IMG/VR virus record: IMGVR_UViG_3300004369_000643
Span: 38,595 to 102,594 of that record
Length of the DNA: 64,000 bases
Source: a virus
Direction: 5' to 3' (one strand)
Made by a program: the position numbers and the translations under genes. Positions 7,195 through 25,638 of the stretch are shown here, piece by piece. The notes beneath the pieces were generated by a model that was not told the DNA's origin, made no database searches, and was given only the letters and a program-made list of their open reading frames with translations. Position 1 is the first letter of the stretch. Every line of letters begins with the position of its first letter.

Positions 7195-7353
7195 ATGAAG
7201 AAATTTCTGTCCCGTTCTTTCGCTGCTCACGCTTGTATGGGCGCAGGCATCGTTTTTATCGGCCTTGGTATTAGTATACTAAGTTTGGGGTGGGGTTTGG
7301 CAAGTGCTGGTCTTGCTTGTGGAATGTACGGGTATTTATTAGGGGCTGAATAA
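7195..7353 (+). CDS. Small membrane protein preceding the portal (52 aa, not in ORF track)
   Basis: MKKFLSRSFAAHACMGAGIVFIGLGISILSLGWGLASAGLACGMYGYLLGAE; TAA overlaps the portal ATG; leaderless promoter. Confidence 0.75.
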   Translation: MKKFLSRSFAAHACMGAGIVFIGLGISILSLGWGLASAGLACGMYGYLLGAE

Positions 7354-8939
7354 TGGCATGGAACTCTAGTTCAAATAAATCACTTCAATCCGGTATTGAA
7401 GAAAAGCGTGCGCAGGTTTCTGTGGGCGCTCCGGTTGCGTATAGCCCAACTATTCAGGGAAACAATCGTGGTTACCATGATGGTTGGGATATTGTTAAGA
7501 CCTATAAAGAGGCCGTTGCTAAGGTAACATGGGTATATCGCTCCATTGATGTTATTGCTTCCAATCAAGCAAGCCTGCCCATGATTCTCCGCAGGGATAA
7601 CAACCCTTTTGGTGAAATTGTAACTGAAAATCCTATTCTAAAAATTTTCAATAACACTGCTAATATTGGTGAGAATGCTTGGGCATTCAGGTATCGGCTT
7701 AGTTCGCAGTTACTGATGAGCACTAGAGGTGTATTTGTTGAGATAGTGCGCTCTAGGGATGGTACACCGATTGCAATGCATTTGTTACCGCCTCAGAATA
7801 CATCACCAATTCCCGATGTTAAAAACTTTGTTAAGGGCTTTGAAGTCCAAATTACGGCCATGGAAAAGCGAGTCATCAAGCCTAGTGATGTAATTTGGGT
7901 GCGCCGCCCGCATCCCCTTGATCCGTACTTATCCATGACCCCTATGGAGGCGGCTGGTATTGCCATTGAGCAAGAGACTTTGGCTAAGTTGTACAATAGA
8001 AACTTTTTGATTAACGACGGTAGGCCGGGGGGACTACTAGTCTTGCGAAGTGAAATTTCTGAAGAAGACAAAGATGAACTGCGATCAAGATTTAGAGGCA
8101 ATATTGGTAGAGCAGGCGCTGTTGGTGTTATTTCATCAGATGATGGTGCTGATTTTGTAGATACTGCTGCTAGCCCTCGTGATGCTTCGTATCAGCAAAT
8201 GAGAACAATTACTAAGGAAGAAATTTTAGCATCGTTCGGTGTCCCAGAGTCTATTATTGGTAACTCAGCCAACAGAACATTCTCTAATGCTATGGAAGAG
8301 GGTAAGGTTTTCTGGATGGAAACTATGACTCCACATTTGAATCTTATTGCCCGTTCATTTGATGCTATTGATGAATCTTACTTTGTTGACTTTGATACGT
8401 CAAACGTTCCTATTTTGATTTTGTCGAAGCAGGAACGTGAGAAGCATTATTTGTCAGAATTCCAGCAAGGTTTGATTAGCACAAATGAGTATAGAGAATC
8501 CTCTGCTCGTAAGAAAGTTGAGTCTGAGTTGGCTGATTCACTCTTGGCAAATCCAAATCTTACACCTTTGGCTAATACTGAAAAGCCTATGCAGCCTGAA
8601 GGCCAAGAGCAAGGTATGGGTGGTGCTCCCGGTATGGGTGGAATGGATGACATGGCCGGTGGTATGGGGGGTATGGACGGCGGCACTCCTCCGGCTCCTC
8701 GTGATGCGGGCTTTGTTGAAAGTGGTGTACCTCTCCAGCAACAAGCCACCTCAGCATTACAGCAACAAGTCACTGAGTTTAGTCCAGAAGAAGGTGCATT
8801 TGTTCCACTTGGCAATGTTCAGGGGACACAGAGAATTGAAGCACCTGCTAGCGCAGTTCCTAGTGAATTAGATGTGGAGGGTGAGAAGAGCCTCCCTTTA
8901 GAACAAAGACTTCTATTATTGGAGAACCTCCTCTCGTAG
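7353..8939 (+). CDS. HK97-family portal protein with P/G/Q/M-rich C-terminal tail
   Basis: WVYRSIDVIA..ASLP; PLDPYLSMTPMEAA; NFLINDGRPGGLL; EILASFGVPES..G...TFSN; GLISTNEYR. Confidence 0.93.
   Translation: MAWNSSSNKSLQSGIEEKRAQVSVGAPVAYSPTIQGNNRGYHDGWDIVKTYKEAVAKVTWVYRSIDVIASNQASLPMILRRDNNPFGEIVTENPILKIFNNTANIGENAWAFRYRLSSQLLMSTRGVFVEIVRSRDGTPIAMHLLPPQNTSPIPDVKNFVKGFEVQITAMEKRVIKPSDVIWVRRPHPLDPYLSMTPMEAAGIAIEQETLAKLYNRNFLINDGRPGGLLVLRSEISEEDKDELRSRFRGNIGRAGAVGVISSDDGADFVDTAASPRDASYQQMRTITKEEILASFGVPESIIGNSANRTFSNAMEEGKVFWMETMTPHLNLIARSFDAIDESYFVDFDTSNVPILILSKQEREKHYLSEFQQGLISTNEYRESSARKKVESELADSLLANPNLTPLANTEKPMQPEGQEQGMGGAPGMGGMDDMAGGMGGMDGGTPPAPRDAGFVESGVPLQQQATSALQQQVTEFSPEEGAFVPLGNVQGTQRIEAPASAVPSELDVEGEKSLPLEQRLLLLENLLS
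8876..8900 (+). other. Candidate programmed -1 frameshift signal (SD-like GGAGG + C CCT TTA)
   Basis: X XXY YYZ heptamer at 8894-8900 in the portal frame; GGAGG at 8876-8880; the -1 frame is open from 8885 to 9715. Confidence 0.7.
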
Positions 8940-9715
8940 ACGAGTCCGAGTGGAGAACTAAAACACTATACACTGTCAATTCTTTAGAAGAACAATTAAA
9001 CACCGCATTAGACAAAGTTTTTGATGAGCAAGAGCGTGTTGTTCTAGAAGAGTTGAATAGTGACGCCGTTAAAGCCGCTATTGCTAGCGGTTCGGTGCCC
9101 TTAATTATGTCCGCAATTCCCACGACTTTGCTGACTCCCACAACTGTTGGATTAGTTGCTGCTATGCTTGCTTCATATAACAAAGCAGTCACAGATAATG
9201 TTGAAGAGGGATATGGTGCTCCTGTTAGTCAGCAGACGGCAGATGCGGCGGCTTCGGAGCATTTAGCATCAGTAAATAATTTTAATTCAACAACCCAGCA
9301 GGAGGTTGCGTCTGCTTTGGTTGCTGCGTCGCAGTTGTCTGATGAAACTGATGGCGATATTGATATCGCTTTAAAAATTGCTTTGGCTTACTCGCTGATT
9401 AAGGCAGTTTTCAATAAACTCAGAACAAAGCGTAGAAAGTTGATTGTAGATGCTGCCGTACTTGGTACGTATAACCAAGGATTGTATGATTCTGCAACTG
9501 CCGAAGAGCAAAGATCAGGTAGAATTGTTCAGAAGCAGTGGATTTCTTTAATGGATGAGAGAGTTAGGTCTACTCATAGACAGTTACATGGGGATAAAGT
9601 TGCTGTCGGTACGCCTTTTATTGTTGATGGCGTGTCCATTAGATTCCCTAAAGACCCTTTGGCTCCTCCCGGTTTGACTATTAACTGCCGTTGCGTTTTA
9701 CGCTTCAGCAGGTAG
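8885..9715 (+). CDS. MuF (SPP1 gp7 / Phage_Mu_F)-like minor head domain, probably expressed as a portal fusion
   Basis: KQWISLMDERVRSTHRQLHG...PFIVDG..RFPKDP.APPGLTINCRC. The frame is open from 8885 with no ATG/GTG/TTG until a weak TTG at 9053. Confidence 0.85.
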   Translation, partial: EEPPFRTKTSIIGEPPLVDESEWRTKTLYTVNSLEEQLNTALDKVFDEQERVVLEELNSDAVKAAIASGSVPLIMSAIPTTLLTPTTVGLVAAMLASYNKAVTDNVEEGYGAPVSQQTADAAASEHLASVNNFNSTTQQEVASALVAASQLSDETDGDIDIALKIALAYSLIKAVFNKLRTKRRKLIVDAAVLGTYNQGLYDSATAEEQRSGRIVQKQWISLMDERVRSTHRQLHGDKVAVGTPFIVDGVSIRFPKDPLAPPGLTINCRCVLRFSR

Positions 9716-9806
9716 TTTATATATAAGTATTTATATAAAGCAGAGACTGGGTACCCAATAGGGTTTGTACAATATGACATAGGAGACTAGTCCTTAGAGG
9801 AGAGTT

Positions 9807-11372: not shown

Positions 11373-11402
11373 GATATTCTCTATAAGGATACAGGAGTAA
11401 AA

Positions 11403-13205
11403 ATGAGTGATAACCTTAATGAAGACCTTCAGAAGATGGAAGCCCTGAGCGAAGTCATTGATTCTGGGGAAAGCATGTCTGCCGAAGAAAAGGGTATGCA
11501 TGATATGAAGAAGAATGCGCCATCAGTTTTTATGACTGATATTCGTTTCAAGGAGTCCATGGAGGCCGGTGATTTGCTTACCGAAGAAGCCTATATGTCT
11601 TTGGATGCGGATGATCAGAAGGGCTATGAAATGGTTCAAGTAATGGATGAAAAGACCAAAGAGCCTATGGGTTGGGTTTTCCGCTTTAAGTCTGATGAAG
11701 ATGATGGCGAAGAGGCTGTTGAAGAGGCTGTCGAAGAGGCTGTCGAAGAGGCTGTTGAAGAGAAGTCAGAGACTTCAGATATTTCTGAAAAAGCGGCTGC
11801 TCTCATGGCACAAATGCGTTCAACTGATGATGATAAACCATCAATGTTCTTAACTGATGCTCGGTTTAAGGAAATGATGGAAGACGGAGAACTAGTTTCC
11901 TCTGAAGATTATGACGGTCTTGATGAAGACGCTAAGGGTGCTTACGAGGCTGTTGAAGTTTACGAAGAGGGTACCGGCAAGGGTTATGGTATGCGTTACC
12001 GCCGCCGCAGTCCTCTTGAGTTGACTTCAATGCGTAAGGGTCAGCACATGGACGAGAAGGCTGATGACGGTATGGAAGACATGTTTGATTCAGAAGAAGA
12101 AGCACTTGAGCGTGCGGCTACTCTGGGTTGTGAAGGCGTTCATCGTGCCGGTGAGAAGTTTATGCCTTGTGCATCACACGATGATTGGATGAAGTTGAGC
12201 AAGCCTGCAGAAGAAGAAGCACCCGCTCCTGCTGCCCCTGCTGCTCCTTCTGCTCCTGCTGCTCCTGCAGACGCTGGCATGAAGTCAGAAGAAGAGTTCC
12301 TTTGTGGATTCCAGCGTAAGTCAGTTACGCAATCATGTGAATTTTGCTCAGGTGGTTGCGCACCGCAAGACGGTCTACCCGGATTGGCTGATATTGAGAA
12401 TCAAGTTAAGTCAGATTATGAGGGTTCTGAGATCATTAGTTCAGGATACTCTGCAGGTGACGACGTTTTCGTTGTAGACGTTAAGCGTGCTGATGGATCA
12501 TTCATTGAAGTGTTCTTGACCGGTGAAGGTGAAGAACTAGGATGGTTGCGTTTAGATGAGAGTGCAATTGAGGGCAAGTCCGCTGAAGCAATTGAAGTTG
12601 TTTCTAAGTCAGACGCTGAATTGACAGCATCAAAAGCCATTAGCGACATGGGAATTAAGGCTGAAGTCATGAGTGTTACCGTTGACATCTTCGCAGACGA
12701 AGATGTTTATGTTGTGGAACTTGATGCGGAAGAGAAGAGTTACGATGTGTTCATTTCAGCAGACGGCAAGGTTCTAGGCTACGATGAATATGAGTACGAC
12801 ACTCCTGCCTCATATGAACTTTCTGAAGAGGAAGAGATTAAGGCAATTGAAGCCGAACTAGAAATTAAGCGGATGTACTCTCGTGAACAGCGTGAGGCTA
12901 TGGCTGAATCTGGTGAGGCTCTTCCCGACGGATCATTCCCCATTGCGGACGAAGCCGACCTTAGTAATGCTATCCAAGCACTCGGACGTGCGTCTGATCC
13001 AGAAGCGGCTAAGGCACACATTATGAAGCGTGCTACAGAACTTAAGTTAGAGGATATGATCCCTTCAGATTGGAGCGATGGTGATTCACCTGCTCCAGCA
13101 TCTGCACCAAAAGAAACAGACGCAGAAGAGAAGGGTTTGGACGAAGATATCCTTAAAGCAATGGAAGAGTTCAATAGCCTTTTGGAAAGTGACGAACTTT
13201 CTTGA
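11403..13205 (+). CDS. Acidic modular head-associated (scaffold/internal) protein
   Basis: Internal ~58-aa duplication; GCxGxH..MPC motif; PepSY-like repeats; PDGSFPI...NAIQA module; lies between protease and capsid. Confidence 0.65.
   Translation: MSDNLNEDLQKMEALSEVIDSGESMSAEEKGMHDMKKNAPSVFMTDIRFKESMEAGDLLTEEAYMSLDADDQKGYEMVQVMDEKTKEPMGWVFRFKSDEDDGEEAVEEAVEEAVEEAVEEKSETSDISEKAAALMAQMRSTDDDKPSMFLTDARFKEMMEDGELVSSEDYDGLDEDAKGAYEAVEVYEEGTGKGYGMRYRRRSPLELTSMRKGQHMDEKADDGMEDMFDSEEEALERAATLGCEGVHRAGEKFMPCASHDDWMKLSKPAEEEAPAPAAPAAPSAPAAPADAGMKSEEEFLCGFQRKSVTQSCEFCSGGCAPQDGLPGLADIENQVKSDYEGSEIISSGYSAGDDVFVVDVKRADGSFIEVFLTGEGEELGWLRLDESAIEGKSAEAIEVVSKSDAELTASKAISDMGIKAEVMSVTVDIFADEDVYVVELDAEEKSYDVFISADGKVLGYDEYEYDTPASYELSEEEEIKAIEAELEIKRMYSREQREAMAESGEALPDGSFPIADEADLSNAIQALGRASDPEAAKAHIMKRATELKLEDMIPSDWSDGDSPAPASAPKETDAEEKGLDEDILKAMEEFNSLLESDELS
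11709..11762 (+). repeat. 12-bp coding tandem repeat (EEAV x4.5)
   Basis: GAAGAGGCTGTY x4 + GAAGAG. Confidence 0.9.
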
Positions 13206-13223
13206 TACTCTAGGAGGCATAAA

Positions 13224-13403
13224 ATGCAGCCTAGCCAAGTGATACAGAGAATTGCTGCCGCTAACCAAACTTTAGCAGAATTAGGAGCATATGCTGTTCT
13301 TGGTGACCACGTTAGAGATAACGAGGTAGAATATCTGTATAGAGACGGATTAGAGCATGTCTTTAGTCCCTTAGAAACCACTGGGGATTCGGATGACGAT
13401 TGA
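13224..13403 (+). CDS. Small hypothetical protein (59 aa, not in ORF track)
   Basis: SD AGGAGG; MQPSQVIQRIAAANQTLAELGAYAVLGDHVRDNEVEYLYRDGLEHVFSPLETTGDSDDD; fills the gap and overlaps the next start. Confidence 0.75.
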   Translation: MQPSQVIQRIAAANQTLAELGAYAVLGDHVRDNEVEYLYRDGLEHVFSPLETTGDSDDD

Positions 13404-16400
13404 GTTTAAAGCGCCCGAAATAGGTCCAAATGCCGATGCGCTGACCAGCCTTACACGAGGCCGAGGGCCACGTAGAGGCAACTTAGAAGACCTACTGAAG
13501 TATTGGCGTCCTATCATGAAGAAGCCGGGTGGATTCCGTAGGTGTGTTGTCATTTTAATGGATAAGCCCCAGTTTGGTGGAAAGCCTCAGCGCATTTGTG
13601 CTTGGCTTCACCACGAACTTACAGGTAAGTGGCCAAATGAAGGTAAGGGCAAGAAGGGTAGCCGCAGTCGTAAGAAGCGCCGTGGGCGTTCAGTTACTCG
13701 TAGGGTAAGGTCTGCGGGTAAGAAGTCTTTGATGGGTATGTCACCTTTGACTGAGGTTACTTCTTTGCGTATGGCTATTCGTGAGTCTCGTGAGTTTGGC
13801 GGAATTTTGGTTCAACCAATTGCGGGTAGGCAGAATGCTGTAGAAATGAAAGCGGCTATGTTCCTGCGCCACTCAGAATCTTTACCTTTGTTTGCTGGAA
13901 ATGACGTTAAGCGGGTTGGTACTGTTGGTTCTTCTAGTGGTTTGGGGCAGGCCGCTCAGGCTGCGGGTAGTATTATTCTTCCGGGTGATTTGTCTGACAT
14001 TCGTAGTCCTATCCGTTCGCAAATTTATGAAACTTTAACTCCGGGCGGTGGTGGAAGCATTCGCCGTCCTAGTGCTCGTCGCTTATTGAGAGGTACGGGT
14101 CGTGGTGCTCGTAATAAGTTTAGGTGTCCTCCGGGTTTTGAAAAGGGCGGAACTTTTACTAATTCTGAGTTCTCTACTTGTGGTGCGCAGATTTTAGGTA
14201 TTGCTAGTTCAGGCCCCGGTTCGCCCACAGCAGAGGCAAACAATAGGCTTTCACGTTTAGCGAACACTGCTGGCTTGGTTAATGAGATTGGTGATCTCCG
14301 TAAGAATACTAATGCTGTAGATATTATCCGTGCTGCTCAAATTCCTGCTGCCCCCAAGAAGGGTAGCCCAACTCGTGCCCAGACTTCAATTGACTTAGTT
14401 CTTTCTCGTTACACTGAAGAAGATTTCCCAACTAAAGTTGTTAGGCGAGACGGTGTTATTTTGGAGCCTGTTGTTTCGGTTGAAGCGCTTGGACGCTTAA
14501 ATGAGTTTGACGACATGGCAGATGGTAGCCTTATTGAAAAGTATGAAGCAGGTCAGATTGGTGCGGCAACTGTTCCTGCATTTAGTGCTGGATTGCGCAA
14601 TGTGTTTGTTTCCGTTCCAGATGCTGGTGCTGTTAAGATTAGTCGTGTAGGCGGAGAAATTTCAGATCAGGAACGGGCAGGCTTGTTACGTTCGTTTTCT
14701 GCGGGTATATCTAGAAGCGCTGATTTACCTGATCCTTCCGCTGCTGTCCGTTCGTGGGCTGACGGCTCTGACGGTAGATTTACTGTTGAGTTTGGTGCGA
14801 TTACAGATAACGGTTTTAGTGTTCAAGATGATAAGAATGAGTTGATCATGGTATCCACTGCTGGTGGCAAATCTCAAACTGTTCCTCGCTGGGTTTATGA
14901 AACTTTCCTGTCTCGTTCTGCACCTCGCCGTGCAAAGGATGCCCCTATTTTTGAAATTGTTTCTGACGAAAGTCCTCTAGAAAAAAGTGTTTCACCATTT
15001 TATTTCTCGAAAAAGTCAGTAACTCCTACTAGTGATTTAAGTGATGTTTTAGATGCGCAGGATTATTACTTATCAATTAATAGTAAAGTTAAAGCATTTT
15101 CTTATTTGACTGAAGTTGAAGTTAAGGCTCCTAGGCGTGGAGGTTTGGGTCGTCGTCTTGGTCGTGGTGGTCGGGCTGTTGGTGGGCGTAGTCGTGCAGT
15201 ATTCGACGGCGCTTCAGGTAGGTATCGTTGTCCTCCGGGCACCCGTTATGGTGGTCGATTCTCAGATCAGTTTGGACGTAATTGCGGCTACTCACTTCCA
15301 CGAGGTGTAGTTAATAATCTTGTTGATTTCGGTATGCGGGTTGAGGACGCAATGGAACGTCGGCGTACCCGCCGAGGCGTAGACACTACTCCGGGTGACG
15401 GTCGCACAAATCTTAAGCCAGAGACTGTTACGCTTTTTGATGATGCCATTGGTAGAGTAGAAGCCGCTACAGGAGATTTAAGTAGAGTCTTTGAGAAGAC
15501 AGAGGGCGCTCAAGGTGGTACATTAGGCCGCACTATTGGTGAGGCTCGGCGTGATGTTGATTTAACTCCTGAAGAGCGTGAGTTACTTGAAGGTGAGGCA
15601 TTGGCCGATGCGTTAGAGAATCTACGTGATGTTTTAAATAACGAGGATTTAAACAACGCCAATATCGATGAAATCCGTAAGGCGTATAAGGCTGTTGAGA
15701 AGGCTGCTAACATCGAAGCGGGTCGTCTGACTGATAATCCTCCACGCACACCAGATCAACGTACATTGTCTCAAAAGATTTTAGACTTCTTGAAAGAAGT
15801 TCTCTTCCGTCTGTTGGGTATATGGAATGAAGATGATGAGCGTCGGCGCATTGGCGGCGGTGTAGACACTCGTCCCGGTGATGGTGATGCTGATGTGCCG
15901 GGAAGTCGTCCTCGTGTTCCGGGTGGAGGACAGAGCCGTCCTCGTATTCCTGTAGATAATGATCAAGGTCGTCCTCGGATTCCTCTAGATAATGATCAAC
16001 GGCGTCCTCGTATTCCTTTAAGTTTGGATGATGCTGTTCGCAGTGATTCAGATGATCGGGATTCTTTAGAGGCGATTTTGAATGAGTTTCGTGATCGTGC
16101 TGAAGAATACGAGGTTGCTGGCGGTGGAATGACTGCTGATTTTGTTGAGTCATTAGACGACAAAGATTTGGATAGATATACTCAAGCATTTGAAGATGCT
16201 GCAAGACTGTTAGCGGATGATCCAGCATTTGATGATATTAACGACGCTTTAAATCGTCTGCGTGGTGAGCGAGATCGTCGGGACAGGCAACGCAGTCTAG
16301 TTAATGCCGATCTTCGTGAACGCTTTGATTTAGATAGCGAAGATGGTCTTGCTGACGCTATTGAACACTTTGAAGACCTTGCCGATGAGTATGAGGCAGC

Positions 16401-19400
16401 AGATATCATGACTGCTGACTTCTTTGAACGTTTGAACGACGATGAAATTGCGTTCTTCCAAGACGTGTTTGATAGGGCTATAGATAACATTGGGGACAAT
16501 GAAGACGGCGCATTTGATGCGATTGCTCGACGTTTAGAAGATGAACGCTCACGCCGTGATCAATTGAATAGAGAAGATTTCAGTAAGGAAGATTACAATT
16601 TAGTTCTTAAAGAAATGAATGCACATATGAAGCGGTTTGAGGTTGCTGGCGGTGGAATGACCGCTGACTTCTTTGATGCCGTTTCAGATGATGACCTGAT
16701 TAAGTATCGTCGTGCTGTTCGTGATGGTTTAGATGCTGATGCTTTTGATGGTGAAAATCGTGAAGCATTACAGGAACTCTTAGGGCGTATGGACGGAGAG
16801 TTTGATCGTCGCTTTAAAGGCCCCGGCAAGCGTCCTCGTATTGAGTCAGAAGAAAACAAAATTGAAGATAAGTTTACTTTAGATGGTGATGCCGATCTTG
16901 CTGCTGCTATTAAAGAGTGGGAAAGGCGTGCCGCCGACTTTGAAGTTACTGGTGGTGGAATGACTCAAGATTTAGTTGAGTCACTAAGTAATGAAGAACT
17001 TATTTTCTTTGAAGATGCTCACATCCGCTTAAAGGAGCGTATGGGAGAATTTGATTCTTTCGATCCCGCTGATTTAGATGAGATAATTAATCGCCTTCGT
17101 GGTGAGCGTGAGCGTCGTGGATTTAATTCATGGGGGCAAGGATCAGAGCCTGATCAGCGTTCGCTGATAAATGTCAATAACCGCTTCCCACGAAACGGTT
17201 TACCTAATCGTGCTTATTGGCGGGATGACAATTATGACGGTGATGATGCTGCTGAGTTAGATCGACGGTTTGGTCGTTACTATGATGGTAACAATATGCT
17301 GAATGATAGGGGTCGCTCTGTTAATCGCCGTTTGGGTCGTGATAGTGATTCTAATGCACCTGACGTTGCGCCTGATGGCGATAGTCCTGACGATCCAGAT
17401 AATCTTAGCAGGTTCTCTGATGATGAACTTAGAGCATTACTTGCTGATGATAATGCTGAATTACCTTTCAATATCCAACGCATTTCTGATGATGACTTAA
17501 GGCGTATAGAGCAAATTGGTGACGAGTTTGGCTCATCAGAAGAGATTACAGCAACAAACGGAATATTTAGGCGTCCATTAAATAATGTCCGAATTGTTGC
17601 GGAGGAAGTAAATAGGGGGCTGAATGGTGAGCGAGATCCGAACCGTTTAGGTGCAGGTACACCTGATGCGTCTCGGCCTGACATTCCTTCACCGCTTTCC
17701 GATAATAACTTTAATTCTGGCCGTAGGCTACGTCAGCCTATAAGAGCAATTGATGATGCCGATGATAATCAGTTAAATAACTTGCGTGGCGCTATGCAGC
17801 GTGAGTTTGCAAATTCGTATAACGAGTGGGTTGCTGAGTTAGGGATTGCAGGTGTCGCTTCGGAAGATGTATCGTTTACTAGGATTAAAGAATATATTGA
17901 CGGTATTCAAGATGTTGATAGGCGTCGTCTATTAGAGATGAGATTGGCTGACTTACGAGAGTTGAATGAGGGTGTACGTAAGTTAAATCAGGGTGATGAT
18001 ACTCGTGAAGTTCTTAGAGATCATTTAGGCAGGATATCGGTTGTTCGTAGAGCGAGCGTTATGAATTTGATTGACAACGACGATGCTAACGTTCCTAATG
18101 TTCCTGATGAACCATTTGTTGAATCTTTGATTCCTAGTGATAATCCTCTTGAGGGTAGAAGACGGGTACGGGATGCTGGATTAAAGTATGATCAAGAAGG
18201 TAATTCTTTCTTAGCGAACATGGATTTTAATGATCTTGGTCAACTATTTGATGATATAAAAGCGGCAGAGATCGATGGCGAGGTTTTAGCGCCTAGGTTC
18301 CGTGATACTGTTAGAGCGGAATATAACTTTAGGCTGAGAACAAATGACGGGGATTACGATGCTTTAGTTGCCCGTTTGGAAGGAATGTCTGACGAAAGCC
18401 TAGAAGAAATGGCTACTCGTGACATAGACTTTAGAGTTATTAGACTACGTGGGGGTAATGACAATGGTAGTCCTCCGAGCCGTGCAGCCTTGGCTCAAGC
18501 AGATAGATTAATTGAGGCCAAAGAGCGACGTGAGAGAAATCTGCGTGAAAGAATTCCTACAGGCACTATAGATGTTCCTGAAGATGGCAGCATCCGTGAT
18601 CGGGTTGGTGCAGTTTTGGGTGAGGGTGCTGTTGATATGGATGACAGAGCAGCAGAAGCCTTCTTACGCAGCCTGTCTTTTGAAGAATTTACACGTTTGT
18701 TGGAACGTAAAATGAATATGATGCCAGCATTTGATGATATAGACGACGAAGATTATATCGTTCTTTCTCAGATTGGGCAGCGTATAACTCGTGAAAAAGA
18801 TAGGCGAGAGCACGTTCGAAGGTTCCAGTTAGACGTACCAATAAGCCAGCGTTCAAACGAGGCTTTAGATAAGTATGAAACCTATTTTAATGAGTTGCTT
18901 GGTAGGCTTCCTGACGGTAACGCAAATTTTGAGCGGGTGCGAGACGAGATTCGTCGTGAGAAGCGAGCGAGAATTTTTGCACAGTCACCTAGCGTTATTG
19001 ATTTAGAAGATGAGGGTAGTTCATTAGTAGATGCGTTCGTACCTGATGCGCCGGGTTCTGGAGATATCGAAGACCTTGAGAAGTTCTTTGCTAATCGTGC
19101 GCTTCACGACGTTATGTCTACTCGTGATATGTTGAGAGTAAGAGATAGGATTCAGAATAGCCCTAATCTTACTCAAGATGAGTCTACGGCCTTGTTGCGT
19201 ACTTGGGATGATCGTATGCGTAACAGAGGTTTGAATTTTGAAAGAAATCTGCCTATAGATCAGCGGTCGGCTGATGCGCTACAACGGCATATAGACTTTT
19301 TGAATACACGAATGGAAATCCGTGATGCAGATGGTAACAGGGATATTGCGGTGGTGCAGGCATATGAAAATGCTATTTCTCTTTTAAGTAAACAGCGTGA

Positions 19401-21783
19401 TATTCGTATCGCTGCTGATGAGGTAGCGGCTGCTGTCGATGCTAATCCTAGTTTGTCTGATAGGTGGCGTAATGTCGCTAAATGGAATTTCTTGAAGGCT
19501 CGTCGTATGCGTCAGCAGAAACGTGAACAGAAAATTCGTGAGATTGCAGAAAGACGTTATGCTAATCGGCGTTCACCTTGGAATATAGGCGGATTAGATG
19601 GCTTAAGCAACATGTCTGATTCACAGGTTAGGGCACGGATTAGAGATACATATTTGGTTGGAAGTTCGACTGATACTGGTACGGTAACAATTAATGGTGA
19701 AGTTTTTACAAAGCGTATAACTCCAACTAACTCAAGGATCGAAGTTAATCGTTCGGCTAATGGTAGAATTTACAAAATAGATTTCAGCGCACATATGAAG
19801 TTTGAGTTAGTAGATTCTAACGGGAATGTAGTCAAGAGTGAGACTCACCGATCAGCAGAGGGTTGGACTAGAGGTAGAATAGAGAGAAGCATTACTTATG
19901 ATAGTAACGGTGTTGGCACTGTTGAACACAAGTTTTTAGGTCTTGATAGGGTCATGTCTTATAATGGGCAGGACGTTCCGTTTAAAGGCGGGGGATATAC
20001 TGACGAGTTGTTTAATAACAACTTGCTTTTCTACAGAAACATGGGTATAGAAAAGGTTAGCGTTTCTGCTGCTAGCGATGGTAACATTGTTTGGCCTCGT
20101 ATTGGATTTAGAGAATACGACGGGAACAAAATCAAACGACTTAACACTAAAATGCTTGTAGTTTTAGAAGACTATAGGGGTTATAAGAGGGCTAAAGAAA
20201 CAGGAGTTCCGCCAACAGCAGAGCAAATTGCGGCTAAAGCCCTCGTTCAAGATGACGTTAGGATGGCAAGATTAGATGCCATGTTGGAGCCACATAGGCT
20301 CAACCCGCAAGACGTTGATGCTCTGCCGGGGTACCACGATTTCTTATTGGCTCTTGACGGTGAAAATCGTAGAAACTCTGTAGCCTTCCAGTTACTTAGA
20401 GGAAGTAACCGAAATTTGCGCCTTGCTAAAGGCGGAGAAGGGATCTCTGGATTAGATGAGGGTATGCTTGATGAGTTGTTTGCAGATGATCCCGATTTGG
20501 AGAATAGAGAAATTGCTAATCCGTTTGGGGGTATGAACTTTAGTAGTGGTGTTTGGGATATTAGCGATATTTTGGGTGATGCTGGTGGTGATCCTCGTCG
20601 GGTTAACAGTAATTTAATTGATCCATATGATGGCCCTGTTGATTCTGCTGTAAGCGCCCCTCGTCAAACGGTTGGCCCACTTTCACAGAAGATGAATCCA
20701 GAAGTTGGTAGAGACGTTCAACGCCCAGTTAATGGTGTTCCTGTAGGAACAAACAATATTAGCAATTCAAATGATGCTGTAGATTATTTGAATGGTGGTG
20801 GAGATGTTTCTGGGGTTCCTGACGAATTTGTAAATCAGGCGATTATAGGTTTGTCTGATTTACTTTCTGACGCTAATCGTTTAGGCGATATAAGGTTTAG
20901 AAACATTAAACCTAGCGATGCTAACGGCATTAATGACGGTTTAGATTTTAATGGTGCACAAATTTTAGAAGACACAGTAACTGGTCAAGTTTTTGTAATC
21001 AAGTACAATCAGGGTCGGGGTTACGGTCATGATGAGGCTGCAAACGAACTTGTTGGTCGTGCCATCATGATTCGTATGGGCTTCGCTCAAGGCCAAGTCA
21101 GACTTGATGGGCCGGGCGATCCGAATGAAAGCCGACCTGCACGTGGTTTGGTTGGTGAAGCGTTGCATAACTATCTGCCTGAAGGAGTTAACCGTTCAGA
21201 TATAAGTATGGGTAATAGTGGGGCGGACATATATCTTAATGATGCTGCCGAGTTGGACGATATGACACACCTTATGCTGGGAGATGCTTTACTTTTCAAT
21301 ACCGATAGACATTCCAAAAACTGGCTGCAGTACACTGATCCGAATACTGGTAAAATTAGAATTGTACCAATTGACATGGGTCTAGGTTTACGAGGCAGAT
21401 CCGCAAATGGTGATGATTTAAGGGCTGAAGGGCTAGACGCTCCTAACCAAATTGCCAAGTGGGCATTGTCAGGCAAGGGCGGCAGTCATAGTCTTAATGG
21501 TGTTCAGAAAGCACTTAAGATGCTTGCTACAGATGCGGATAAAAGGCGAGAAATTGCAGCATCGTTTGATCGTGCAATAGCAAGAATGCGTGCTGCTCAC
21601 CAGCAAGAAGACATTACTGGTGTATTGGAGACCATTGGGCGTGAACATGGGAATTTGGATAGCGATGGGTGGAAGCGAGCGCAGGCCATGTTTTTAGAAA
21701 GATATGGATGGTTAATGGAATCATCTGTTAATGGGGATCAACTTGTCAGATTGATTATAGACGCAAGGCCACCGAGATCATAA
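13393..21783 (+). CDS. Giant (2796 aa) polyvalent head-associated protein with GNAT-like and C-terminal HipA/PI3-PI4-kinase-like domains
   Basis: Kinase motifs FVIKY..AANELVG, GDALLFNTDRHSKNWL, IVPIDMG; GNAT-like KGGGYTDELF...YRNMGIEKVSVSA..DGNIVWPRIGF; internal repeats. Confidence 0.75.
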   Translation: MTIEFKAPEIGPNADALTSLTRGRGPRRGNLEDLLKYWRPIMKKPGGFRRCVVILMDKPQFGGKPQRICAWLHHELTGKWPNEGKGKKGSRSRKKRRGRSVTRRVRSAGKKSLMGMSPLTEVTSLRMAIRESREFGGILVQPIAGRQNAVEMKAAMFLRHSESLPLFAGNDVKRVGTVGSSSGLGQAAQAAGSIILPGDLSDIRSPIRSQIYETLTPGGGGSIRRPSARRLLRGTGRGARNKFRCPPGFEKGGTFTNSEFSTCGAQILGIASSGPGSPTAEANNRLSRLANTAGLVNEIGDLRKNTNAVDIIRAAQIPAAPKKGSPTRAQTSIDLVLSRYTEEDFPTKVVRRDGVILEPVVSVEALGRLNEFDDMADGSLIEKYEAGQIGAATVPAFSAGLRNVFVSVPDAGAVKISRVGGEISDQERAGLLRSFSAGISRSADLPDPSAAVRSWADGSDGRFTVEFGAITDNGFSVQDDKNELIMVSTAGGKSQTVPRWVYETFLSRSAPRRAKDAPIFEIVSDESPLEKSVSPFYFSKKSVTPTSDLSDVLDAQDYYLSINSKVKAFSYLTEVEVKAPRRGGLGRRLGRGGRAVGGRSRAVFDGASGRYRCPPGTRYGGRFSDQFGRNCGYSLPRGVVNNLVDFGMRVEDAMERRRTRRGVDTTPGDGRTNLKPETVTLFDDAIGRVEAATGDLSRVFEKTEGAQGGTLGRTIGEARRDVDLTPEERELLEGEALADALENLRDVLNNEDLNNANIDEIRKAYKAVEKAANIEAGRLTDNPPRTPDQRTLSQKILDFLKEVLFRLLGIWNEDDERRRIGGGVDTRPGDGDADVPGSRPRVPGGGQSRPRIPVDNDQGRPRIPLDNDQRRPRIPLSLDDAVRSDSDDRDSLEAILNEFRDRAEEYEVAGGGMTADFVESLDDKDLDRYTQAFEDAARLLADDPAFDDINDALNRLRGERDRRDRQRSLVNADLRERFDLDSEDGLADAIEHFEDLADEYEAADIMTADFFERLNDDEIAFFQDVFDRAIDNIGDNEDGAFDAIARRLEDERSRRDQLNREDFSKEDYNLVLKEMNAHMKRFEVAGGGMTADFFDAVSDDDLIKYRRAVRDGLDADAFDGENREALQELLGRMDGEFDRRFKGPGKRPRIESEENKIEDKFTLDGDADLAAAIKEWERRAADFEVTGGGMTQDLVESLSNEELIFFEDAHIRLKERMGEFDSFDPADLDEIINRLRGERERRGFNSWGQGSEPDQRSLINVNNRFPRNGLPNRAYWRDDNYDGDDAAELDRRFGRYYDGNNMLNDRGRSVNRRLGRDSDSNAPDVAPDGDSPDDPDNLSRFSDDELRALLADDNAELPFNIQRISDDDLRRIEQIGDEFGSSEEITATNGIFRRPLNNVRIVAEEVNRGLNGERDPNRLGAGTPDASRPDIPSPLSDNNFNSGRRLRQPIRAIDDADDNQLNNLRGAMQREFANSYNEWVAELGIAGVASEDVSFTRIKEYIDGIQDVDRRRLLEMRLADLRELNEGVRKLNQGDDTREVLRDHLGRISVVRRASVMNLIDNDDANVPNVPDEPFVESLIPSDNPLEGRRRVRDAGLKYDQEGNSFLANMDFNDLGQLFDDIKAAEIDGEVLAPRFRDTVRAEYNFRLRTNDGDYDALVARLEGMSDESLEEMATRDIDFRVIRLRGGNDNGSPPSRAALAQADRLIEAKERRERNLRERIPTGTIDVPEDGSIRDRVGAVLGEGAVDMDDRAAEAFLRSLSFEEFTRLLERKMNMMPAFDDIDDEDYIVLSQIGQRITREKDRREHVRRFQLDVPISQRSNEALDKYETYFNELLGRLPDGNANFERVRDEIRREKRARIFAQSPSVIDLEDEGSSLVDAFVPDAPGSGDIEDLEKFFANRALHDVMSTRDMLRVRDRIQNSPNLTQDESTALLRTWDDRMRNRGLNFERNLPIDQRSADALQRHIDFLNTRMEIRDADGNRDIAVVQAYENAISLLSKQRDIRIAADEVAAAVDANPSLSDRWRNVAKWNFLKARRMRQQKREQKIREIAERRYANRRSPWNIGGLDGLSNMSDSQVRARIRDTYLVGSSTDTGTVTINGEVFTKRITPTNSRIEVNRSANGRIYKIDFSAHMKFELVDSNGNVVKSETHRSAEGWTRGRIERSITYDSNGVGTVEHKFLGLDRVMSYNGQDVPFKGGGYTDELFNNNLLFYRNMGIEKVSVSAASDGNIVWPRIGFREYDGNKIKRLNTKMLVVLEDYRGYKRAKETGVPPTAEQIAAKALVQDDVRMARLDAMLEPHRLNPQDVDALPGYHDFLLALDGENRRNSVAFQLLRGSNRNLRLAKGGEGISGLDEGMLDELFADDPDLENREIANPFGGMNFSSGVWDISDILGDAGGDPRRVNSNLIDPYDGPVDSAVSAPRQTVGPLSQKMNPEVGRDVQRPVNGVPVGTNNISNSNDAVDYLNGGGDVSGVPDEFVNQAIIGLSDLLSDANRLGDIRFRNIKPSDANGINDGLDFNGAQILEDTVTGQVFVIKYNQGRGYGHDEAANELVGRAIMIRMGFAQGQVRLDGPGDPNESRPARGLVGEALHNYLPEGVNRSDISMGNSGADIYLNDAAELDDMTHLMLGDALLFNTDRHSKNWLQYTDPNTGKIRIVPIDMGLGLRGRSANGDDLRAEGLDAPNQIAKWALSGKGGSHSLNGVQKALKMLATDADKRREIAASFDRAIARMRAAHQQEDITGVLETIGREHGNLDSDGWKRAQAMFLERYGWLMESSVNGDQLVRLIIDARPPRS

Positions 21784-21785
21784 TT

Positions 21786-21820
21786 TTGCTATTTTTGTAA
21801 GATTGGGGTAGACTAGGGAC
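21786..21820 (+). promoter_or_regulatory. sigma70-type promoter, leaderless
   Basis: TTGCTA(21786)-17-TAGACT(21809)-6-ATG(21821). Confidence 0.65.
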
Positions 21821-22054
21821 ATGAAAAAATTTGAATTTTATGACATACAGGGAAAACTTGCAGGTATCGTTACTGAAAACGAAGATGGTTTAGTTGCTGA
21901 AAGTGCTGGTGACCCAGAGTTTAAAGAGTTTATTGAAGGGATGGCTGAGTTAGAGGAGGCCAAAACTGTACGTGAAGTAGTTAAGTCAGGTTTTTCGTAC
22001 ATGAGTATTGTGGAAGTACCAGTAACTGATGCGCCCACTGGAGAAGCATTATGA
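21821..22054 (+). CDS. Small acidic hypothetical protein (candidate immunity/antitoxin)
   Basis: 77 aa with its own promoter, immediately after the kinase domain; the role is inference. Confidence 0.6.
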   Translation: MKKFEFYDIQGKLAGIVTENEDGLVAESAGDPEFKEFIEGMAELEEAKTVREVVKSGFSYMSIVEVPVTDAPTGEAL

Positions 22055-22656
22055 AATATTACATTCTGACTAATAATGCTACCATGCTATTGAGGGTTGC
22101 TGCCCCTAACTCTGGAGAGTTCATTGTTAAGCGTGGCTATGAAAAAGATGCAGACGCCGTTAAACTAGAGTTAGATGTTAGGGCTACGAATAATCCTGAT
22201 GTTGATGTGTATGCGCCCACGATGATTAGGAAACGGTTCCCTAACACTATTGAGGTTGATTCAGCAAAGTTTGAAGATGCTATTAAAAAGGTAGAACAGT
22301 TTAATGCCGAGTACGACGATAATGTTGCTGAGTTAGAAGCCATGTCTCTAGAGGATTTAAAAACATATATTTCTACGGCTCCTGCACGAATGCCAAAGTT
22401 AATCAACTACGCTCAAATAAATAAGTTGTGGCAAGTTTTGTATTCGACTAGTGAGTCAGGCTTTATGTCTATTGAAGAGGGCGAACGTAACGATGATGAG
22501 GTTAAGGAAGATATTCATGCTTTGTACACCATTATTAAAGATGCAGAAATTACAAACGATAATACTATGATTAAGAATGTTTTAAAGTTGGGGGAGAATA
22601 TCACCCCGGAGGCTTTAGGTATTAGTTTTGTGGAGGAGCCAACTGATAATGGCTAA
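22051..22656 (+). CDS. Hypothetical protein (candidate immunity/accessory)
   Basis: 201 aa, coupled to the upstream ORF by ATGA overlap. Confidence 0.6.
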   Translation: MKYYILTNNATMLLRVAAPNSGEFIVKRGYEKDADAVKLELDVRATNNPDVDVYAPTMIRKRFPNTIEVDSAKFEDAIKKVEQFNAEYDDNVAELEAMSLEDLKTYISTAPARMPKLINYAQINKLWQVLYSTSESGFMSIEEGERNDDEVKEDIHALYTIIKDAEITNDNTMIKNVLKLGENITPEALGISFVEEPTDNG

Positions 22657-24163
22657 AGATCCACTTGCTGACCAGACTGTACCTACAAGAGAAATGGCTG
22701 AAAACCTTTCTAAAATTTTAGGTTGTTCGGGCGCTCACCGTGTTGGTGATGACGCTTGGGGGCCTTGCGAGTCTGCTGAAGATTTGCAGCAACTGATCAA
22801 GTTGGGTAATCCTGCATTCAGGGAGTGGAAAGAACAGCAAGGTAAGAAAAACGGCAGTAGGGAGATGCTTCGCTTGAAGGCGGCTAAAGGTAAAAGTGTT
22901 TTTTCTTCTAGGTCTGAAGCAGAGATGGCGGCTATCCGTTTAGGTTGTTCTGGCGCTCATCAAACTTCTCAGGGTAAGTGGGCACCTTGTGGTACACCTG
23001 AAGAGCATAATGCTGTTCATGGTAATGGTGCTAATGGTTCGGCTAGGGTTATCCGTGCTCAACGACCTGCCCGTAGAGTAGTGACCAATGAACGTCGATG
23101 GGAAAATCTCCGTGAACGTGGCCCTCGTGGTATTGAGACACTTCCCGGTGGCGGGCTAGTTTCAGGTAAGGCTGGTGTTTCAGATTCGTTCAAGCCCACT
23201 TCCGGTATGATTTCGGAAGCCAAAAAGGGTTTAGAGTGGCGTAAAGAGTTTGGGCGTGGCGGTACGATGGTAGGGGTTGCCCGTGCTAGAGATATCGCTA
23301 ATGGAAAGAATCTGCCTTACAGAACAGTTAAGAGAGTTAAAGCATTTTTTGATAGGCACCAGAGCGATTCTAAGGCTGAAGGCTACCGTCCGGGTGAAAA
23401 AGGTTTCCCTTCTAATGGTCGAATTGCTTGGGCATTGTGGGGCGGAGATGCTGGATACACTTGGGCGAAGTCAATTGTTCGCCGTGTAGAAGGCGGGGAA
23501 AAGGCTAATTTTGACACTATCGAAGAGAAACGTTTCTATACCGATAAACGTCGCCAAGAGTATGCCAAACGAGGTTGGGCATTACCTGACGGCTCTTACC
23601 CAATTAGAGATGTTGGTGATTTGCGGAATGCAATACAAGCCTATGGTTTAGGTAAAAATAGGGAAGCGGCCAAGCGCCATATCATGAAGCGTGCCCGTGC
23701 TCTAGGTAAGACTGATTTGATTCCAGATAACTGGAAGGTGCGTGGAAAGGCTGCTAGACGTTACGGCCCTAATGATCCTAAAACTCCTGCTAAGCCGTCA
23801 GAGCGGATAACCGGTTCAAGTAGAAATAAGCCGGGGTCTGCTTCAAATACTCGTGGTAAGATTGAGTTATCGGTGGCAGTAGAGAAGTCTCTAAAAGAGA
23901 AGGTCAAGGAACACAACGAGAAGATGGAGAAACGTAATAAAGATAGCCGTAAGGTTACTTTAGGTATGCTTAAGTCTGTTTGGCGTAGAGGTGCTGGTGC
24001 ATTCTCCCAGACGCATCGCCCCAAGATGACTAGACAGCAGTGGGCTATGGGTCGTGTCAATGCTTTCCTTAAGTTAACGTCTAGCGGAAAGCCATCAAAT
24101 CCTAAGTACACAACCGATAACGATTTGCTTCCTAAAGGTCATCCACGGTCTACCCGTAAGTAG
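22649..24163 (+). CDS. Basic modular head-associated protein (DUF3721-like x2, DUF6582-like, DUF5824-like modules)
   Basis: LGCSGAH...W.PC x2; GGTMVGVARARDI...IAWALWGG; ALPDGSYPI..NAIQAYG; VWRRGAGAF...QQWAMGRVNAF; SD GGAGGA before ATG 22649. Confidence 0.65.
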   Translation: MAKDPLADQTVPTREMAENLSKILGCSGAHRVGDDAWGPCESAEDLQQLIKLGNPAFREWKEQQGKKNGSREMLRLKAAKGKSVFSSRSEAEMAAIRLGCSGAHQTSQGKWAPCGTPEEHNAVHGNGANGSARVIRAQRPARRVVTNERRWENLRERGPRGIETLPGGGLVSGKAGVSDSFKPTSGMISEAKKGLEWRKEFGRGGTMVGVARARDIANGKNLPYRTVKRVKAFFDRHQSDSKAEGYRPGEKGFPSNGRIAWALWGGDAGYTWAKSIVRRVEGGEKANFDTIEEKRFYTDKRRQEYAKRGWALPDGSYPIRDVGDLRNAIQAYGLGKNREAAKRHIMKRARALGKTDLIPDNWKVRGKAARRYGPNDPKTPAKPSERITGSSRNKPGSASNTRGKIELSVAVEKSLKEKVKEHNEKMEKRNKDSRKVTLGMLKSVWRRGAGAFSQTHRPKMTRQQWAMGRVNAFLKLTSSGKPSNPKYTTDNDLLPKGHPRSTRK

Positions 24164-24351
24164 TATCGCTGGATTTGAGTTTAGGCTATACGCTAGAATA
24201 GTAGTATTGCCTGTTGCAAGAGAATATTGGGAAAGTTCCCGTGAACCCCTTTACGTAGGTGATAGCATAATACTTGACTGGTGTCACCAGATTGTTGGGT
24301 CGCCTGTCATTAAAGTAAACATGTTAAACTCAAACCTTAAGGAGACTAAAC

Positions 24352-25638
24352 ATGAGTTTTGATGAAAGCCGACTCAACGAACTGAAGTCTGCTCTTACCG
24401 CTAAGATGGATGAGCAGAAGCAGATCGCTGATTCGATGCAATTTGAGGGCACAACCCTCATCGCTGATGACGAGAAGAAGTCAGCATTCCAGAATAACAT
24501 GACCCAAATTCGTGAGATTAAGGGTCTTATTGACGACATGAGCACACTTCGTGACGTGGCGGCTTGGTCTTCAGAGGCCGAATACAAGTCAGTTGCTGCC
24601 GAGGTTGCTGCTGGCGTTGAGGCAGAGGTTTCTCGCCACCGTTCAGTCGGTGACGCTTTCCTCGCTTCGGATGAGTTCAAGTCACTTCAGGGCGGCAAGG
24701 CTGGCGTAAACATGCCTTCACCGTTCATGGCGAAGTCACTTCAGCAGAAAGACCTTTACTCAGGTCTTCCTACTGGAACTCCTAGCGCCTTCGGTGCTAT
24801 TGAGCGTGACGGTATTGTTCCGATTGCTCAGCGCCGCAGCCGTGTACGTGACCTTTTCCCGGCACGTACCACTAACTCAGCAGTGGTTGAGTACTTCCGT
24901 CAGACCGGCTTCACAAACAACGCTTCAGTTGTTCCTGAGTACTCCTCAGGCAACTTTGGTGCGAAGCCTCAGTCAACAATGACTTTCGTGGGTGAGCAGG
25001 CTCCTGTTCGCACGATTGCTCACTGGGAAGCCGCTCACCGCAACGTTCTCGCTGACGAGCCGCAATTGCGTTCGATCATCGACAACGAACTGTTGTACGG
25101 TCTTCGTCTGACCGAGGATGCTCAGATTCTTTCAGGTGCTGGCACCGGCGAGGATCTCACTGGTATCCTTAACACTTCAGGCATTCAGACCTACTCATGG
25201 TCAGCAGGCGCAACTACGCCTGTTGCTGACACCAAGGCGGACGCTCTCCGTCGTGCGGCCACGTTGGCATACCTCGCCTACTACGAGCCGACCGGCATCA
25301 TCGTTCACCCTGCAGACTGGGAAGACATCGAACTCACCAAGAACTCACAGGGCACGTATCTTCTTGCCATGTCTGTTGCTGGTGGTGCAGAGTCACGTGT
25401 CTGGCGGATTCCCGTCATTGACACTCCTGCCATCACTGAGGGCGTTGCTCTCGTCGGTGCGTTCGGTACTGGCGCTCAGTTGTATGACCGTGAGGCTGCT
25501 TCAATCCGTATTTCGGAACAGCACTCAGACTTCTTCGTTCGCAACGCCATCGTGGTGCTTGCTGAAGAGCGTCTTGCCCTCGCAGTCAAGCGTCCAGAGG
25601 CGTTCGTGAAGGTCACCTTCGACGCCGCTCCTTCCTGA
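24352..25638 (+). CDS. Major capsid protein, HK97 fold with N-terminal delta domain
   Basis: AKPQSTMTF; TIAHW; LRSIIDNELLYGL; EDAQILSG.G; GILN; NAIVVLAEERLALAVKRPEAF; SD AAGGAG; strongly biased codon usage. Confidence 0.95.
   Translation: MSFDESRLNELKSALTAKMDEQKQIADSMQFEGTTLIADDEKKSAFQNNMTQIREIKGLIDDMSTLRDVAAWSSEAEYKSVAAEVAAGVEAEVSRHRSVGDAFLASDEFKSLQGGKAGVNMPSPFMAKSLQQKDLYSGLPTGTPSAFGAIERDGIVPIAQRRSRVRDLFPARTTNSAVVEYFRQTGFTNNASVVPEYSSGNFGAKPQSTMTFVGEQAPVRTIAHWEAAHRNVLADEPQLRSIIDNELLYGLRLTEDAQILSGAGTGEDLTGILNTSGIQTYSWSAGATTPVADTKADALRRAATLAYLAYYEPTGIIVHPADWEDIELTKNSQGTYLLAMSVAGGAESRVWRIPVIDTPAITEGVALVGAFGTGAQLYDREAASIRISEQHSDFFVRNAIVVLAEERLALAVKRPEAFVKVTFDAAPS

Follow-up and report, generated by a model that had tools for sequence, protein, structure and literature searches.

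Conserved lysines in linkers and tails of head proteins as candidate prohead protease sites in an uncultured HK97-like myovirus

The window considered here is a stretch of 64,000 nucleotides (positions 38,595 to 102,594) of the IMG/VR virus record IMGVR_UViG_3300004369_000643, a contig of 102.6 kb with an estimated completeness of 69% that belongs to a myovirus, because a tail sheath gene is present on it. Our subject is the head operon of this virus and, within it, a set of conserved lysines that may be cleavage sites of the prohead protease encoded in the same operon. An earlier sequence-only reading had taken the head proteins for polyproteins that are loaded into the prohead and cut into modules at recurrent E-x-K-[ASGRD] sites, with payloads that avoid Lys in order to survive. 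What we describe is narrower: a motif centered on Lys and followed by a small residue is in excess in the head proteins, its Lys is conserved among relatives, and many of its occurrences lie in low-confidence linkers or at module borders.

The operon is tight and runs on one strand from the portal gene (7353) to the major capsid gene (25638), with the terminase gene directly upstream on the opposite strand. It encodes, in order, the portal protein, a MuF-like minor head protein, a prohead protease of the S78 family, an acidic protein of 600 amino acids (aa), an open reading frame (ORF) of 59 aa, a giant protein of 2796 aa, two ORFs of 77 and 201 aa, a basic protein of 511 aa, an ORF of 51 aa, and the capsid protein (Table 1). 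The HK97-type head module that the sequence-only reading had recognized is borne out by the portal, the MuF-like protein, the S78 protease, and the capsid with its N-terminal scaffold domain; the capsid is of the HK97 family, the protease has the conserved His and Ser, and the scaffold domain is fused to the capsid, with no separate scaffold gene. Judged by these genes, the region is a head-morphogenesis operon belonging to a large family of HK97-like myoviruses that are uncultured. IMG/VR contains no fewer than 294 related loci for the capsid and 117 for the protease. The phage collection offers no close cultured counterpart: its best match to the capsid, from Gordonia and Brevibacterium phages, is 47–48% identical, the giant's N-terminal module has no match there, and a search for cultured relatives with virion proteomics found none.

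Table 1. Features of the head operon, in window positions; a slash after a Lys marks the putative cut
Feature	Position	Strand	Basis or remark
Portal protein, 528 aa	7353..8939	+	Pfam Phage_portal E=1e-48
Candidate portal trimming site K9/S-L	codon 7377-7379	+	K in 49/49 relatives having the N-terminus; S at P1′ in 47
Candidate portal trimming site K512/S-L-P	codon 8886-8888	+	K in 40/46; S in 41
MuF-like minor head protein, 220 aa from TTG start	9053..9715	+	Pfam Phage_Mu_F E=7.5e-11; PHROG head morphogenesis/portal families
S78 prohead protease, 521 aa	9807..11372	+	Pfam Peptidase_S78 E=1.1e-12, 48.8 bits versus cut-off 21; DUF3721 E=1.7e-6
Candidate protease self-cut sites K176/D, K185/G, K279/D, K365/D, K376/G			
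DUF3721 copies (~33-aa Cys/His module, LGC-x-G-x-H...PC)	10737-10835, 12099-12203, 22694-22807, 22919-23023	+	4 copies in 3 head proteins
Acidic 600-aa head-module protein	11403..13205	+	String of small domains
Tandem PepSY-like pair, 600-aa protein aa 320-465	12360-12797	+	Structure match
Shared ~50-aa module LPDGS[FY]PI...NAIQA...HIMKRA...IP..W	12918-13073 (600-aa protein), 23582-23734 (511-aa protein)	+	
59-aa acidic ORF, overlaps start of giant gene	13224..13403	+	Homologues in 42 related loci; 0 Lys
Giant gene, 2796 aa	13393-21783	+	
Conserved N-terminal module of giant, aa 1-531	13393..14985	+	Alignment A1
Motif [FY]-R-C-P-P-G...G-G-x-F...C-G, two copies (giant aa 244-264, 612-632)	14122-14184, 15226-15288	+	Invariant across relatives
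Giant K531/S, end of N-terminal module	codon 14983-14985	+	Invariant
Variable linker of giant, aa 532-578	14986..15126	+	Otherwise unalignable among relatives
Giant K578/A, hydrophobic-x-hydrophobic-K island	codon 15124-15126	+	Conserved 0.55-0.61 versus flanks 0.13
Variable 2218-aa payload of giant, Arg/Asp-rich, Lys-poor	15127..21783	+	
Four tandem ~95-aa acidic helical repeats, giant aa ~900-1250	16090-17140	+	By eye; G-G-G-M-T-x-D-[FL] core
Pattern D-R-H-x-x-N ... I-D-M-G, giant aa ~2620-2680	21250-21450	+	
Two small ORFs, 77 aa and 201 aa	21821..22656	+	ORF calls; the 201-aa ORF gave neither a Pfam nor a PHROG match
Basic 511-aa protein	22628..24163	+	Pfam and PHROG matches
HK97-type major capsid protein, 428 aa, N-terminal scaffold (delta) domain	24352..25638	+	Pfam Phage_capsid E=5.8e-47
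Internal capsid site E-I-K57/[GS]-L			Conserved 0.98 (59 sequences)
Candidate maturation site K110/S-L	24679-24681	+	Conserved 0.97 (59 sequences)
Candidate maturation site K128/S-L	24733-24735	+	Conserved 0.86 (59 sequences)
Candidate maturation site K133/D	24748-24750	+	Conserved 1.0 (59 sequences)
Capsid K205, H319, Q333	24964-24966, 25306-25308, 25348-25350	+	Cross-link triad positions

The 26 pentapeptides quoted in the sequence-only reading are all present in the proteins to which they were assigned, although only 14 of them fit E-x-K-[ASGRD]. Counted strictly, this consensus occurs 21 times in the head ORFs (5992 residues) against 9.5–9.7 expected (p about 0.002 or less), and 13 times in the non-head ORFs (14464 residues) against 13.0 expected, so that the excess, of moderate size, is found only in the head ORFs. 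Expectations came from shuffles of whole proteins, of 50-aa blocks, or of 25-aa blocks and were the same each way, which rules out local composition as the source of the enrichment. In the head ORFs the control patterns were flat, namely E-x-R-[ASGRD], the reversed K-x-E-[ASGRD], and E-x-K in which the position after the cut (P1′) is hydrophobic or of another kind, and D-x-K-[ASGRD] showed a non-significant excess (11 versus 7.4, p=0.12). The HK97-like pattern K-[SAG]-[LIVMA] was met 37 times in the head ORFs versus 20.8 expected and 37 times elsewhere versus 44.9, and K-S-L, the HK97 site itself, 6 times versus 1.5 in the head ORFs and 0 times versus 3.4 elsewhere. F-K was rejected as a motif: FK alone is not enriched (11 versus 9.4), and although FK[ASE] is in excess (8 versus 2.4), the R-F-K motifs of the 600-aa protein sit within confidently predicted repeat domains. 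No motif site was found in the MuF-like protein or in the 77-aa and 201-aa ORFs. Among the relatives, the ratio of observed to expected sites in three bands of identity was 1.8, 2.3, and 1.43 for head-side ORFs, and 1.4, 1.0, and 0.95 for downstream ORFs in the same bands; below 72% capsid identity there were 166 motif sites versus 115.8 expected, counts that are partly non-independent through homology.

Regarding conservation, we aligned 30–59 non-identical homologues each for the portal, protease, 600-aa, 511-aa, and capsid proteins, and 22 for the N-terminal region of the giant, and scored each Lys column against its flanks (±12 residues). The Lys of the strict motif stands a median of 0.31 above its flanks, versus 0.09 for the other 176 Lys (p=2e-4), and the 26 quoted sites behave likewise (0.31 versus 0.09, p=1.4e-4) in relatives that the sequence-only reading had not seen. 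The effect is present in every stratum of flank conservation, and none is found when R, D, S, T, A, or G occupies the same place in the motif frame; the conserved position is the Lys (0.79 versus flank 0.56). Five sites are clearly unconserved (K180 of the protease, K121 and K294 of the 600-aa protein, K12 and K79 of the capsid) and K219 of the 600-aa protein is borderline, and about a quarter of the listed sites are chance matches.

The claim that the sites mark module boundaries largely holds, although conservation is uneven from site to site. The AlphaFold model of the 600-aa protein, with a mean predicted local distance difference test (pLDDT) of 70, consists of confident small domains between linkers of pLDDT<50 (residues 22–31, 100–127, 137–143, 217–222, 269–317, 390–398, 468–472, and 560–578). 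The domains are ~60-aa repeats (40–98, 146–205), a DUF3721 module (228–267), and a PepSY-like pair (320–390, 397–465), followed by a long helix, an LPDGSFPI...HIMKRA module (506–557), and a C-terminal helix. Six of the seven sites quoted for this protein lie within these linkers, and a Lys followed by S, A, or G is found in every linker except 468–472 (K30, K130, K212/K219, K306, K392, K577), with conservation from about 0.5 (K30, K219) to 1.0 (K212, K306). The 511-aa protein is likewise modular, with two DUF3721 copies (23–60, 98–132), phrog_2859 (190–292), LPDGSYPI...HIMKRA (319–369), and DUF5824 (438–499); the Lys at its module borders (K84, K89, K181, K292, K301, K374) are conserved at 0.83–1.0, and four quoted sites stand at borders set independently by PHROG and by tblastn (179–311, 303–433, 385–511).

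The giant protein joins a conserved N-terminal module to a variable payload through a variable linker. The module comprises a domain with a Cys/His motif (30–85, phrog_6439), a basic stretch, an RCPPG...CG element (244–264), and a confident alpha/beta domain (300–525). For the module, Foldseek found no PDB fold match, and the protein atlas matches lie below the useful score (0.77). In an alignment whose mean identity is 50%, K6, K153, and K531 do not vary, and the segments of pLDDT<50 (1–29, 526–555, 566–599), which flank the confident domains, hold K6, K531, and K578. The strongest single observation is a gene fission just after K531: several relatives encode the first ~540 residues as a gene of their own, 545–568 aa long, which ends 10–25 aa after the invariant E-x-K531/S. 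The invariant K6/A-P, in the low-confidence N-terminus, is only suggestive of a cut site for a short N-terminal targeting peptide of the T4 type. Beyond the joint, the payload is swapped among relatives, as its BLAST identity is only 44% where the capsid is 96% identical, and in other relatives the giant aligns over only about the first 800 residues. Each of the two RCPPG copies, one in the N-terminal module and one in the payload, follows a conserved hydrophobic-K site and a stretch rich in Arg and Gly.

In the portal protein, the tail beyond K512 is poorly conserved and often absent in relatives. The protease has a catalytic domain (aa 14–176) followed by a C-terminal extension of 345 aa with one DUF3721 module (aa 311–343); its GHD (H68) and SIGY (S132) motifs are near-invariant in 51 sequences, H68 and S132 being, as we take it, the catalytic pair, and a sequence search found no solved structural relatives. 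The invariant K176 closes the conserved catalytic domain, and K185 is conserved at 0.92 within the variable linker 177–200.

The capsid protein matches HK97 gp5 chains over residues 150–425 (E about 5e-54 to 7e-54). Its fold begins near residue 135–150, with ~135 extra N-terminal residues where the HK97 scaffold domain lies, and residues 1–134 show conservation in 59 relatives and can be aligned to the scaffold portions of the full-length chains 9osb and 9lbm. By position, the mature N-terminus of HK97 maps to about residue 135, beside the invariant K133/D; E-F-K110/S-L is a look-alike in sequence of the HK97 site; and the comparison with D3 hints at about K128/S129 without deciding. An attempt to place the cut by aligning the scaffold region to solved structures yielded nothing beyond a weak alignment to D3 and a lipoyl-domain match that is put down to chance. 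The weak likeness (E=0.011) of capsid aa 98–129 (24643–24738) to the lipoyl-lysine hairpin of E2 acetyltransferase, around G-G-K-A-G-V-N-M-P-S-P-F, is probably due to chance. Of the HK97 cross-link triad (K169, N356, E363), the Lys is represented by the invariant K205, the Asn is replaced by H in 42 of 59 sequences and kept as N in the other 17, and Gln or Asn stands in place of the Glu; the capsid is thus predicted to be one probably without HK97-type chainmail. The triad is a trait of HK97 itself and not of the wider family.

Conserved Lys islands in linkers and at protein ends are as expected for protease sites. We propose, with belief and doubt about equally balanced, that the S78 protease cuts multiple head substrates after a limited set of conserved Lys in linkers and tails, including the joint between the N-terminal module and the payload of the giant. 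Co-assembled in the prohead, the protease would act on exposed Lys in flexible linkers or terminal tails, in a context of Lys followed by Ser, Ala, or Gly and often then by an aliphatic residue, with an acidic residue two or three positions before the cut (P2 or P3). The scaffold domain of the capsid would be removed after K110, K128, or K133; the portal would be trimmed of its first 9 and last 16 residues; the protease would be freed from its own C-terminal extension; the acidic 600-aa protein would be cut in its inter-domain linkers; and the N-terminal module of the giant, up to K531 or K578, would be separated from an intact, swappable payload of ~2200 aa. The module would then serve as a long propeptide or carrier, like the N-terminal propeptides of T4-like and phiKZ-like heads (PMC10052503), in a role parallel to that played by DarB's N-terminal signal in phage P1 (PMC9024508).

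Several observations weigh against this proposal. The excess is carried by two proteins, since only the capsid (5 versus 0.5, every one within the scaffold domain) and the 600-aa protein (7 versus 2.4) are individually significant, and the motif is not individually enriched in the protease, the giant, the portal, or the 511-aa protein. The consensus is looser than it was first written: its Lys is conserved, whereas the Glu at P3 and the residue at P1′ are no better conserved than their flanks. Within low-pLDDT linkers, the conservation of Lys does not significantly exceed that of other residues (0.51 versus 0.41, p=0.1), Arg and Gly included, and the idea that it is the most conserved residue class of the linkers was dropped. 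In addition, one strong site, K445 of the 600-aa protein, lies buried within a beta-strand predicted with confidence, and the capsid maturation site is, on the alignments given above, ambiguous among K110, K128, and K133, each of which would be a cut after Lys. Much of this would be accommodated if only the scaffold domain of the capsid, and perhaps the protease, were processed as in HK97, with the accessory proteins left intact and the other Lys engaged in structural or binding roles such as salt bridges with acidic residues or interactions with DNA or with the shell. We consider this alternative rather unlikely, yet it deserves to be taken seriously; it leaves unexplained why motif Lys form conserved islands in the variable, low-confidence linkers of several proteins, why genes are split exactly after K531, why K-S-L sites stand at both extreme termini of the portal, and why the excess is confined to Lys with a small residue after it.

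Clearly less probable is that composition and selection by eye have produced the motif, with acidic linkers rich in small residues yielding E-x-K-small without any function. This view can point to the five or six unconserved Lys, to the poor fit of the quoted list to its own consensus, to a motif defined post hoc, after the head proteins had been inspected, and to an unbiased scan of ~1500 residue pairs in which E.K and EK reach only p about 0.01–0.015, values that fail correction over that many tests; the last two points also count against multi-substrate cleavage. Nevertheless, the controls and the conservation test make a pure artefact unlikely: shuffling 25-aa blocks keeps the local composition and still leaves 21 sites versus 9.6, no excess appears in the Arg, reversed-order, and other-P1′ controls, the listed Lys exceed their flanks in conservation among relatives that played no part in listing them, and the excess persists at low capsid identity.

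The remaining part of the sequence-only reading, in which the payloads are cut at many sites and have been selected to be poor in Lys, fares worst. Its compositional observation was correct for the giant, whose payload has 2.6% Lys and 11.6% Arg, a K/(K+R) of 0.18 that is the lowest of the large ORFs of the window and is low even for the family (median 0.44, 5th percentile 0.22, 25th percentile 0.37), and three related lineages share this bias. For the 1031-aa protein, also described as favoring Arg, the ratio is 0.28, which is weak against the same percentiles, and its ‘ART’ label has no Pfam support at E<0.01; the absence of Lys from the 59-aa ORF is real but not significant at its length. 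However, in four relatives with a protease 74–75% identical and the same N-terminal module, the payload has 6.2–7.8% Lys and 5.1% Arg (K/(K+R) 0.53–0.61), and the 2281-aa giant of a more distant relative (L076) has 6.4% Lys and 6.0% Arg, which contradicts Lys avoidance and led to its rejection; the Lys-poor, Arg/Asp-rich make-up is a property of the payload lineage and not a defense against the protease. The payload has no motif site versus 1.8 expected, which is not a significant depletion (p=0.16), and the payloads of relatives are at chance, so a payload punctuated by motifs and cut into modules is also rejected, and at most the N-terminal module would be removed. Mature parts of the capsid and portal, moreover, retain many invariant Lys, and in phage SPN3US 42 head proteins escape the prohead protease simply by lacking its motif (PMC10052503). 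Taken with its Lys-avoiding payloads, the full polyprotein model is therefore very improbable. The negative result has a use of its own, in that the amino-acid bias of a cargo cannot serve as a signature of protease avoidance.

The system can be set beside several known ones. In HK97, the S78 protease gp4 cleaves the capsid precursor gp5 between K103 and S104, within a stretch that lacks structure (PMC10275583); phage D3 is closely analogous. With HK97 and D3 our operon shares the protease family, a close capsid homologue (E about 1e-54) carrying a scaffold domain at its N-terminus, as well as a conserved Lys-Ser-Leu at the junction of scaffold and N-arm, where the HK97 stretch is unstructured (PMC10275583, PMC12749128). 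It differs in the ~13 kb of additional genes that separate the protease gene from the capsid gene, the 345-aa extension of the protease, the spread of putative sites to the portal and accessory proteins, and the His and Gln that stand at the cross-link Asn and Glu positions in the window. SPN3US has a multi-substrate prohead protease, with N-terminal propeptides on its substrates and a C-terminal propeptide on the protease itself (PMC10052503), and the T4, phiKZ, and SPN3US heads resemble the proposed scheme in having one head protease with a short motif and several substrates, in propeptide removal, in that most of the cargo escapes for want of the motif, and in N-terminal propeptides that can act as targeting signals (PMC10052503). 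The difference is that proteases of the T4 gp21 type cut after Glu, while the present enzyme is of the S78 type, and so falls outside the gp21 type, with Lys as the candidate residue before the cut (P1).

The Dar system of phage P1 also belongs to a myovirus with a head protease, and its giant DarB (250 kDa) is thought to be loaded into the head and injected, its loading being dependent on helper head proteins and on a signal at its N-terminus (PMC9024508). A similarity in sequence was not found; the P1 capsid is cut after Glu (E120/S121), and the P1 signal has ~30 residues versus the ~530 of the N-terminal module here. Polyvalent proteins (Iyer et al. 2017, PMC5512222) are the other parallel, being giant, fast-evolving, modular, found among head-packaging genes near MuF, and swapped in their payloads, and the giant of L076 bears an HExxH peptidase-like motif. 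In the window, the gene for the giant stands after that of the protease and ahead of that of the capsid, in a tight same-strand operon. That paper proposes processing mainly by internal peptidase domains (PMC5512222), whereas the candidate here is the prohead protease, acting only at the joint between N-terminal module and payload.

It is thus established that one head protease can process many head and ejection proteins, and that giant modular proteins are loaded into heads. What would be new, if true, is an S78-type protease with Lys at P1 acting on accessory proteins, and a fixed carrier module joined to a variable payload at a conserved Lys. An HK97/S78 protease would then do what mass spectrometry documents mainly for T4- and phiKZ-type proteases, maturing several head proteins and releasing a giant injected protein from its carrier. 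One could use the rule of a Lys plus a small residue within a flexible linker to predict the mature virion proteins of the many uncultured phages of the same type, and the joint would show the attachment point for swappable cargo.

A more elaborate scheme of modular cargo loading on an HK97-type head can be imagined, which we regard as doubtful. In it, DUF3721 would be a prohead-targeting tag, the LPDGS[FY]PI...HIMKRA module perhaps a second one, S78 cuts in linkers would free an intact, swappable effector of ~2200 aa, and the PepSY-like pair would restrain the protease until assembly. One copy of DUF3721 stands in the protease extension, one in the 600-aa protein, and two at the N-terminus of the 511-aa protein, and atlas clusters that pair it with DUF5824 are viral; in the distant relatives L076 and L067 two copies open the giant itself. 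The module may be a prohead-targeting or metal-binding tag. The second module was also found by tblastn inside proteins annotated as capsid maturation proteases in ~190-kb Microbacterium phages. The PepSY-like pair has the expected tandem arrangement of a helix packed on a four-stranded sheet and matches 4exr (Z 10.7, root-mean-square deviation 1.4 Å over 62 residues), YpmB (Z 8.8), and YpeB, UipA, and the M36 propeptide (Z about 7); no Pfam PepSY match was found at E<0.01, and the small fold is a common one. PepSY domains are peptidase-inhibitory propeptide domains, and a regulatory action of the modeled pair on the adjacent head protease is conceivable.

Some features of the neighborhood are of lesser weight. 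The 511-aa protein probably starts at M8 (codon 8, excluding 22628–22651), where its protein atlas entry begins, which would remove most of the overlap with the preceding gene. A 245-aa gene immediately 3′ of the capsid gene (25729–26466) could encode a decoration protein. In the giant, self-BLAST detected no repeats and so missed the ~95-aa acidic ones listed in Table 1. For distinct effector or enzyme domains, the giant gave only sub-threshold matches, DUF5643 (E=4.6e-4) and, from the D-R-H-x-x-N ... I-D-M-G pattern near its C-terminus, PI3_PI4_kinase (E=0.03) and HipA_C (E=0.14), in view of which the C-terminus may be a kinase-like domain. The giants of the two distant relatives, 2281 aa in L076 (2818–9663) and 2763 aa in L067 (1062–9353), also belong to head operons, and the peptidase-like motif of the former is a zinc-peptidase-like H-E-M-G-H. 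A similar layout is seen in Actinomycetia phage DSL-LC01 (OQ999401.1; L162), a 129-kb phage assembled from a lake metagenome, where a 3289-aa ORF (15640–25509) separates the portal gene from two others that carry the annotation of capsid maturation protease.

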